A stretch of DNA of 57,084 bases from a virus, in the IMG/VR virus record IMGVR_UViG_3300010262_000001, positions 1-57,084 of that record; one strand, 5' to 3'. Each line of letters opens with the position of its first letter. Within the stretch, counting starts at the first letter, position 1. The translations under genes were made by a program, and so were the position numbers. The notes under the pieces were generated by a model. It had not been told where the DNA came from. It was given only the letters and a program-made list of their open reading frames with translations, and searched no databases. This document shows positions 13,645 to 14,208 of this stretch, one piece after another.

Positions 13645-14208
13645 ATGGGGATTAGAGTGGAAGATCATTTAGGGATTGCTTTAGATGTTGCTAATAAAAT
13701 ATCTAAAATAAGTGGAAAAAGTTTCGAAGAGGTGTATTCGGATGCTTTAGAAGGTTTGGTTATAGCAGCTAGTAGGTTTGATAAAACAAGAGGGCTTGCA
13801 TTCTCAACATATGCCTACCCGACAGTATTGGGAACAGTAAAAGGATGTTTTTATAAGGATAAAAGTAAGTTCAAAAGAATAATAACTGATGGTAAAGAGA
13901 TTTATGAAAGAGTATATTATGAGTCCTTAAATGAAAAAGTTAGAATCGATGAGGGTAAACCTAAGGAAAAAATAGAACTTCTAGAGGATTTTTCGGATAA
14001 GTCACTAGAGGATGATGTGGTTAATAGGGTTTTTATAAATAAAGCTTTAAATGATTTAGAAGAAAAAGAAAAAATAGTTTTGCAATTACTTTTTTATAAA
14101 GAAAAGACACAAGTAGAAGCGGGAAAAATTTTAAATATGAGTCAGCCTCAAGTATCTAGGCTTAGAGATAAGGCTTTAAAGAAAATAAGAAGAAAATTTT
14201 GTTCTTAA
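13645..14208 (+). CDS. Sigma-70-family RNA polymerase sigma factor (SigF/SigG/SigB-like group)
   Basis: Region 2 LEGLVIAASRFDKTRGLAFSTYAYPTVLGTVKG (compare FSTYAVPMIIGEI of SigF/G) and region 4 HTH TQVEAGKILNMSQPQVSRLRDKALKKIR. Confidence 0.8.
   Translation: MGIRVEDHLGIALDVANKISKISGKSFEEVYSDALEGLVIAASRFDKTRGLAFSTYAYPTVLGTVKGCFYKDKSKFKRIITDGKEIYERVYYESLNEKVRIDEGKPKEKIELLEDFSDKSLEDDVVNRVFINKALNDLEEKEKIVLQLLFYKEKTQVEAGKILNMSQPQVSRLRDKALKKIRRKFCS

Follow-up and report, generated by a model that had tools for sequence, protein, structure and literature searches.

Does a sigma factor encoded in the early region of a clostridial phage-plasmid serve the development of the element that carries it, or is it directed at the sporulation program of the host? 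This question is raised by a gene at positions 13,645 to 14,208 (plus strand) of the IMG/VR virus record IMGVR_UViG_3300010262_000001, a complete record with terminal repeats whose 57,084 nucleotides are the window analyzed here. A sequence-only reading of this DNA had described the gene product as a phage-plasmid-encoded sigma factor that resembles the sporulation and stress SigF-SigG-SigB group, lacks any region 1 or region 3 extension, and joins Spo0E-like and AbrB-like genes as one of three regulators aimed at the host sporulation and transition-state network. As judged from its sequence, the protein is a sporulation-type sigma factor of a distinct, phage-associated lineage of compact proteins (175-195 residues) and is not an orthologue of SigF, SigG, or SigB; its gene is accessory cargo and not an essential late or developmental regulator of the element.

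A two-domain protein of the sigma-70 family

The plus-strand open reading frame (ORF) at 13,645-14,208 is intact and encodes 187 residues plus a stop codon, with the protein sequence quoted in the earlier reading. A strong ribosome-binding site (RBS), AAGAGGTG (13,633-13,640, plus strand), can be read from the sequence 4 nt before the ATG, and a small ORF of 22 residues, MDIGEAIKEQLALNKKYKKKRK (13,559-13,627, plus strand), lies 5′ of the gene, with a run of seven adenines (A7, 13,613-13,619) at its end. This is a genuine sigma-70 family gene, with both the region 2 and the region 4 domain above the Pfam gathering scores, as had been proposed: Sigma70_r2 (PF04542) matches residues 5-65 with 30.6 bits (cut-off 24), and Sigma70_r4 (PF04545) matches residues 134-182 with 46.5 bits (cut-off 24.1; 2.6e-12). 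PHROG 351, "RNA polymerase sigma factor," is matched at 1.6e-30, the cluster that contains the protein carries the NCBI annotation "sigma-70 family RNA polymerase sigma factor," and the generic sigma model TIGR02937 (73.1 bits; cut-off 42.9) is the only NCBIfam model that the protein passes. PADLOC returned no family for the sigma factor or its three neighbors at E ≤ 0.001, and a defense-system-associated sigma factor was rejected on this ground.

To describe the domain architecture we used an AlphaFold2 model built from a 36-sequence alignment, with a mean predicted local distance difference test score (pLDDT) of 77. The sigma2 domain (residues 5-71; 13,657-13,857, plus strand) spans regions 2.1-2.4, includes the motif FSTYAYPTVLG, and folds into three helices (5-23, 27-44, and 53-71; pLDDT 84-96) that enclose the Pfam Sigma70_r2 match. 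It is followed, in place of a sigma3 domain, by a β-hairpin (75-90) and a disordered, region 3.2-like linker (92-119; 13,858-14,004 for both, plus strand), an assignment that draws on the model, the alignment to sigmaF (1L0O_C), and the connector length. The sigma4 domain (residues 121-186; 14,005-14,202, plus strand), defined by Pfam Sigma70_r4, four modeled helices, and a comparison of motifs across sigma groups, harbors the −35 recognition helix SQPQVSRLRDKALKKIR.

The absence of region 1 and region 3 extensions is confirmed by these data. Only 4 residues precede region 2.1, versus 38-42 in SigF and SigG, and the connector from region 2.4 to region 3.2 measures 21 residues, versus 58-61 in SigF, SigG, FliA, SigA, and a SigB-like paralogue; the same connector has 7 residues in SigE and SigK and about 6 in sigma factors of the extracytoplasmic function (ECF) type. 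The three-helix sigma3 domain is not seen in the AlphaFold2 model, which has only the hairpin and the disordered linker at this position. In the sequence alignment to 1L0O_C, residues 25-75 and 94-181 of the protein correspond to sigmaF residues 53-102 and 159-242, leaving sigmaF residues ≈103-158 and the first ≈28 residues unmatched. Group 3 sigma factors usually have sigma2, sigma3, and sigma4 (Paget 2015, PMC4598750). The layout is that of a two-domain sigma factor like SigE and SigK, minus their pro-sequence, or like ECF proteins, and the sequence is nearest SigF and SigG.

This proximity is most evident in the helix predicted to read the −35 element. The region 4.2 helix of the window protein reads SQPQVSR, compared with SQVQVSR in SigF (5/5 sequences) and SQAQVSR in SigG (6/6), and on sequence it is of the SigF/SigG type, S-Q-x-Q-V-S-R; the corresponding residues are SQSYISR in SigE, SRSYVSR in SigK, SQMYVSR in the SigB-like paralogue, SESRISQ in FliA, TRERIRQ in SigA, and SRQWINR in UviA. 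Regions 2.3-2.4 retain the FSTYA-P--G pattern, as in SigF, SigG, and SigB.

Placement among sporulation-type sigma factors

The highest-ranking specific NCBIfam models are SigB/F/G (TIGR02980; 94 bits, in two stretches), spore_sigF (TIGR02885; 86.6 bits), and the SigF/SigG subfamily (79.7 bits), followed by SigG (TIGR02850; 63.2-70 bits), FliA (63 bits), SigB (59 bits), and SigE/K (≈34 bits). With curated cut-offs of 234.35 bits for TIGR02980, 321.45 bits for TIGR02885, and 457 bits for TIGR02850, we rejected membership in the TIGR02980 subfamily (94 versus 234.35 bits, and without the required sigma3 domain) as well as assignment as a SigF or SigG equivalog, both scores being under their cut-offs. 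The best PDB sequence match is sigmaF from its complex with SpoIIAB (1L0O_C; 5e-13), followed by 8X6G_H (Staphylococcus aureus SigB complex) and FliA, and a Foldseek search of the PDB retrieved sigma factors only, with Bacillus subtilis SigB and SigD models and S. aureus SigB at the top.

A HMMER scan of 1.84 billion representatives gave 6297 matches, just two of them below 1e-30, and the nearest were other proteins of 175-195 residues. When a profile of the short clade described below was used, cellular SigG (257 residues) was retrieved first. A narrower alignment search for related loci yielded only 2 genomic and 5 viral loci, and the lone short-clade member located in a bacterial genome, from Cuneatibacter, has an identical counterpart on an IMG/VR viral contig.

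Phylogenetic analysis (IQ-TREE, LG+C20, 86 rows; supports are given as pairs) included SigF, SigG, SigE, SigK, and FliA from five Clostridia genomes, labeled by NCBIfam equivalog cut-offs, together with SigA and a third SigBFG-type paralogue of those Clostridia, ECF-like sigma factors, phage sigma factors, and 32 short representatives; UviA of the bacteriocin plasmid pIP404 represented the TcdR/BotR/TetR/UviA group. The window protein groups with two 88-90% identical alleles (P0001 and P0002) at 100/100, and with P0004 added at 100/94. The next sister consists of phi3626 ORF32, CP51 gp37, and three viral contigs (97/81), giving a 12-row clade of proteins of 181-187 residues, and the motif DKSKF-R-GKE-ER-SLN is common to this phi3626/CP51-type clade. 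The wider short clade comprises 35 rows (90/87), while SigF with SigG (97/94) and SigE with SigK (96/99) form clades of their own, the former of which excludes the window protein. A group supported at 80/76 contains the short clade, both of these pairs, SP10 g120, and the Deep Blue sigma factors and excludes the SigB-like paralogue, FliA, SigA, and ECF proteins. As in the phage "sporulation-like" sigma factors of Schwartz et al. (2022), the top TIGRFAM model is SigBFG, followed by spore_sigF, and the protein falls in the sporulation-type clade (80/76), for which support is moderate.

The sequence-only reading had named clustering with ECF or TcdR/UviA-type factors as the outcome that would overturn it, and clustering with neither is observed. 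An ECF (group 4) assignment was rejected since, although the two-domain layout is present, the ECF-type region 4 model PF08281 scores 20.1 bits, under its cut-off of 25.7, and no rows in the tree are more distant than the ECF references (mean path 7.5). The neighbors of the sigma gene, encoding a 116-residue PHROG 1389 protein and a 248-residue helix-turn-helix (HTH) protein, are also found without it and do not fit the anti-sigma neighbor typical of ECF loci. A TcdR/UviA-type assignment was rejected as well: only region 4 aligns to UviA, TIGR03209 is not among the best 25 families, and the two proteins occupy separate positions in the tree. The resemblance to the SigF-SigG-SigB group thus stands as regards the best profiles (SigB/F/G, then SigF), the best PDB match, and the SigF/SigG-type helix, and fails as regards membership, given the curated cut-offs, a position outside the SigF plus SigG clade and not near the SigB-like paralogues, and a compact layout nearer that of SigE/SigK or ECF.

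The third SigB/F/G-subfamily paralogue is found in each of the five Clostridia genomes (G004, G007, G020, G021, and G026; loci L086-L090) and forms a well-supported clade of its own. The two of these proteins that were scored reach 247-269 bits, enough to pass the subfamily cut-off but too little for the equivalog cut-offs of SigF, SigG, and SigB.

The sigma gene is optional cargo under purifying selection

Relatives of the window are known both as plasmids and as phage: it shares 94-96% identity over shared parts with two circular Clostridium perfringens plasmids, NZ_CP148603 and NZ_CP143535, and 84% identity with the isolated phage phiCp-D. Since it also encodes a ParM-type partition protein, a DnaD-like Rep, and a full set of virion genes, the term phage-plasmid used in the earlier reading is justified.

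Junction alignment delimits a variable cassette (13,545-14,202, plus strand), consisting of the 22-residue ORF and the sigma gene, that extends from the stop of the conserved 116-residue gene to the RBS of the conserved 248-residue gene. A blastn comparison with pZ1323HCP0073-3 gives nothing over 13,545-14,202 and 94-97% in the flanks. At this junction, phiCp-D, NZ_CP148603, and NZ_CP143535 have no sigma gene, and the 116- and 248-residue genes are adjacent there, with just a short unrelated ORF between them; a small MDIGEAIKEQLALNKKYKKKRK-type ORF is present in phiCp-D directly 5′ of the 248-residue gene. Over the whole phiCp-D and pZ1323HCP0073-3 records, TIGR02937 finds nothing above 14 bits, in a search that scores the phi3626 and CP51 sigma factors at 82-87 bits. 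Three other 55-kb contigs carry the sigma gene in the same slot. In 90% clusters of a 15-billion-protein collection, the sigma cluster holds 18 variants, from C. perfringens where named, on about 47 listed contigs of 50-58 kb, compared with at least 219 listed contigs for the flanking 116-residue protein and 107 variants of the 248-residue protein; roughly one element in five therefore carries the sigma gene.

Because phiCp-D and the plasmids exist without this or any other sigma gene, the gene is dispensable for the backbone life cycle. The late genes appear equally independent of it, since the late-gene upstream (promoter) region shows 92% conservation when sigma-plus and sigma-minus elements are compared and since they have their own RinA-type activator (19,656-20,210; TIGR01636, 33.2 bits versus a cut-off of 31.9), encoded upstream of the terminase genes at 22,432; a late regulator of the ArpU/RinA type had been correctly anticipated. 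We also considered co-varying cargo as a source of sigma targets and rejected it: none of the 19 window-specific segments relative to pZ1323HCP0073-3 tracks with the sigma gene in the sigma-plus locus L005.

Comparison of the window with the L005 allele gives a ratio of nonsynonymous to synonymous substitution rates (dN/dS) of 0.27 for the sigma gene and 0.04-0.07 for four neighboring genes, at similar dS, so the sigma gene has diverged alongside its flanks and is no recent arrival; the GC content of the cassette matches that of the flanks. The gene is under purifying selection, with function retained, yet evolves faster than its neighbors. Region 4.2 is unchanged between these 90% identical alleles, and most changes lie in the linker. 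Among the 15 listed variants, 11 have the full-length ORF of 187 residues, and these occur on numerous independent contigs of 50-58 kb. In variant P0273, the upstream 22-residue ORF is fused in frame to the sigma gene, apparently via the A7 run at 13,613-13,619, to give 216 residues. In variants P0275 and P0279 (151 residues, ending in EKEKNGFAITFL), an extra A in an A6 run inside the sigma gene (14,069-14,074, plus strand) cuts the protein before region 4.2; the window copy is intact at this run. These homopolymer-run variants may represent decay, phase variation, or sequencing error.

A proposed role in host sporulation and its alternatives

Starting from the observed family membership, architecture, clade, optional presence, and purifying selection, we favor with moderate confidence a functional alternative sigma factor of the phi3626-type lineage that would most likely mis-time or redirect forespore-type transcription in the host and so alter sporulation. 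The transcription unit that covers the genes for the sigma factor, the 248-residue HTH protein, dUTPase, and the AbrB-like protein seems to start after a bidirectional terminator and a reverse ribbon-helix-helix (RHH) gene (11.9-12.1 kb). A sigmaA-like promoter or terminator specific to the cassette was looked for, and none was found. On this basis a classic self-contained moron was rejected, and since the sigma gene has neither element of its own, it is probably transcribed within a delayed-early operon that starts near 12.1 kb. Binding to host core RNA polymerase would take place through sigma2 and sigma4, and the region 3.2-like linker would pass through the RNA exit path, in the way known from two-domain sigma factors. 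Because the recognition helix is SQxQVSR, the holoenzyme is predicted to read promoters with a SigF/SigG-like −35 element, most probably on the host chromosome. Forespore-type transcription would in this way be mis-timed or redirected and the ordered sporulation program disturbed, beside the products of the Spo0E-like and AbrB-like genes.

The presence of these two genes (Spo0E-like, 7,647-7,778, PF09388, 50.5 bits; AbrB-like, 15,507-15,752, TIGR01439, 41 bits) agrees with the earlier reading. Both belong to the backbone in the relatives examined, with the sigma gene optional and missing from the closest relatives, and the three are not a fixed set; it is plausible that they act jointly on sporulation of the host. 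Both backbone genes point in the same direction as the sigma gene, toward a host kept vegetative. Spores are the form in which C. perfringens persists and is spread, and certain of its traits are linked to sporulation, such that an element with up to three regulators of the sporulation network could change the sporulation frequency of its host. The optional sigma gene within one phage-plasmid family provides natural plus/minus pairs for a clean comparison, and a compact, sigma3-less lineage with a SigF/SigG-type helix leads to a specific prediction, namely use of forespore-type promoters and insensitivity to SpoIIAB.

As to the latter, the protein may escape the partner-switching control exerted by SpoIIAB. 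The sigmaF segment that is ordered in 1L0O and contacts SpoIIAB is probably the sigma3 domain, and, if this docking site is right, escape would follow because the segment matching it is missing from the window protein. The ordered part of sigmaF in 1L0O amounts to about 50 residues (PMC10141391).

Several observations weigh against a forespore-type role. The short clade, SigF/SigG, and SigE/SigK form a polytomy within the 80/76 group, and the scores for the sporulation- and SigB-type NCBIfam models are all far under the curated cut-offs (190-457 bits). Following FSTYA-P--G, the window protein has GTVKG in region 2.4 in place of the GEIKR of SigF and SigG, so −10 specificity may differ from theirs. 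A dN/dS about six times that of the neighbors, together with some truncated alleles, also fits weak or conditional usefulness. The proposed escape from SpoIIAB depends on docking at sigma3, a site reportedly described by Campbell and coworkers in 2002. Finally, B. subtilis-type SigF, SigG, SigE, SigK, and SigB consensus patterns, said to be those of Helmann and Moran in 2002, occur within the window at chance frequency relative to dinucleotide shuffles, and no target promoter was found there. The one SigF-like match, located near 12.1 kb and upstream of the reverse RHH gene, shares positions with a sigmaA-like −10 element and was discarded as evidence.

The alternative that survives best, which we regard as tentative, is a phage developmental sigma factor in the manner of SPO1 gp28, which, in the variants that carry it, would turn host RNA polymerase to a set of middle genes of the element itself. 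The location of the gene within an early/replication operon without its own promoter would suit such a role, as would the equivalent placement of the phi3626 and CP51 homologues beside replication genes, and many phage sigma factors are developmental regulators (PMC9429907). Against it, sigma-less kin with the same backbone are viable phage and stable plasmids with no substitute sigma factor, and the late region and RinA-type activator are conserved regardless of the sigma gene. Furthermore, the other window-specific segments (HNH, TnpB, intein, and tail-fiber parts) do not co-occur with it in L005, and no non-sigmaA promoter motif is enriched in the window.

An extension of the forespore reading, which we consider doubtful, is that the phi3626-type sigma factors are derived from SigF/SigG, have shed sigma3, and would fire or jam the forespore regulon without asymmetric division or the partner-switching checkpoint; as optional cargo switchable at homopolymer runs, they might then create heritable variation in sporulation among lysogens.

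It is improbable that the protein serves no promoters and works instead as a decoy or competitor, occupying core RNA polymerase or titrating a host anti-sigma or sigma-binding factor and so shifting the host sigma balance. The compact protein does retain the core-binding sigma2 and sigma4 domains, a cognate promoter was not found on the element, and nonsynonymous change is several-fold faster than in the neighbors. However, a region 4.2 helix of SigF/SigG type that is identical between 90% identical alleles argues for selection on DNA recognition, and the lack of the sigma3 segment, the presumed docking site of SpoIIAB, makes titration of SpoIIAB unlikely. A nearly neutral passenger gene that is being lost and has no current function is very improbable, for although the gene is found in a minority of elements, has natural alleles truncated by +1 A in a homopolymer run, and shows a dN/dS above that of its flanks, a value of 0.27 still signifies purifying selection, full-length variants prevail on independent contigs, and invariant motifs mark a wider clade that is conserved in many phages.

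Other genes around the sigma gene

The gene for the 248-residue protein (14,224-14,970, plus strand) starts 15 nt past the sigma stop and encodes three HTH repeats with weak matches to HTH_23, GcrA, and Sigma70_r4_2, and its product is assigned to PHROG 323, "transcriptional regulator." We rejected it as a dedicated partner of the sigma factor, since the gene is conserved in sigma-less relatives and is thus a backbone regulator. On the other side, the minus-strand RHH gene (47 residues; 11,942-12,085) splits the long plus-strand early region into two units. The segment that contains it (11,925-12,145) harbors a terminator-like hairpin with a 16-bp stem (11,925-11,962) and two sigmaA-like promoters (10/12 matches); the gene is labeled a toxin-antitoxin protein in relatives, and a toxin partner is not evident in this segment.

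Several mobile-element-like genes are also found. A plus-strand gene of the NUMOD4/HNH_3 homing-endonuclease type (15,918-16,595), with a weak (21-bit) sigma-family match via its HTH, lies between the AbrB-like gene and ssb and is not at that position in pZ1323HCP0073-3 or phiCp-D. An IS605-type TnpB gene (17,367-18,515) with OrfB_IS605 and Cas12f1-like TNB domains is adjoined by a small reverse RHH-like ORF (17,120-17,311), and the corresponding insertion (17,078-18,679) has no counterpart in pZ1323HCP0073-3. Finally, the ORF for the terminase large subunit (region 23,294-25,575) has an intein splicing domain at its end, with a free-standing HNH_3 gene (24,858-25,472) after it; segment 24,528-25,575 is missing from pZ1323HCP0073-3, in which the terminase gene is uninterrupted.

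Comparison with known sigma factors of phages, plasmids, and hosts

UviA of pIP404 shares with the window protein a similar length (185 residues in UviA), two domains, residence on a clostridial mobile element, and 32% identity over 68 residues of region 4. The two differ in that region 2 gives no BLAST alignment, in that UviA matches the SigBFG model via region 4 only and the window protein via both regions, and in that UviA matches the BotR model TIGR03209, which is outside the best 25 families of the window protein; in the phylogeny, UviA groups with the ECF outgroup and is separated from the window protein by a path distance of 5.9. Host SigF and SigG share FSTYA-P--G and SQxQVSR with it and provide its best profile and PDB sequence matches. 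In contrast to them, it lacks about 37 sigma3 residues and about 35 N-terminal residues and lies outside their clade, and a spoIIAA-spoIIAB or spoIIGA-sigE neighborhood is absent around its gene.

The Bacillus phage sigma factors SP10 g120, Goe3 g157, and Eldridge (PMC9429907) likewise have sporulation sigma factors as best TIGRFAM models and are placed among the sporulation sigma factors in the tree, and they share with the window protein a proposed role in manipulating host sporulation. Phage SigF/G homologues expressed in B. subtilis activated sporulation genes and cut spore yield (Schwartz et al. 2022, PMC9429907), and at least one of the Bacillus proteins, SP10 g120, is non-essential for lytic growth (PMC9429907). 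SP10 g120 differs in its length of 236 residues and its separate long branch, and the Bacillus proteins are backed by experiment, whereas the window protein is known from sequence. Sporulation-like sigma factors on phages are thus a concept already in the literature (Zimmer 2002; Schwartz 2022).

The closest known counterparts are phi3626 ORF32 and gp37 of vB_CpeS-CP51, which like the window protein have a C. perfringens host, a compact layout (181-184 residues), a place in the same clade (97/81), and a gene in the early region near replication genes. Both are already annotated as sporulation-like sigma factors, the phi3626 record reading "similar to sporulation-specific sigma factors," and ORF32 was reportedly first flagged as such by Zimmer, Scherer, and Loessner in 2002. 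They are only about 35% identical to the window protein, and the surrounding elements differ: phi3626 and CP51 have an integrase and a SpoIIID homologue (9,435-9,707 in phi3626, L096; 8,016-8,318 in CP51, L097), whereas the window element is a ParM/Rep phage-plasmid with Spo0E-like and AbrB-like genes instead. The set of sporulation regulators appears to have been put together differently from one element to another. Unlike its phi3626 and CP51 counterparts in this comparison, the window sigma gene is demonstrably optional within its element family. What is added here to the published concept is this optional status, the compact sigma3-less layout, and the SigF/G-type reading helix, which together make the window sigma factor a credible, if unremarkable, candidate for interference with host sporulation.

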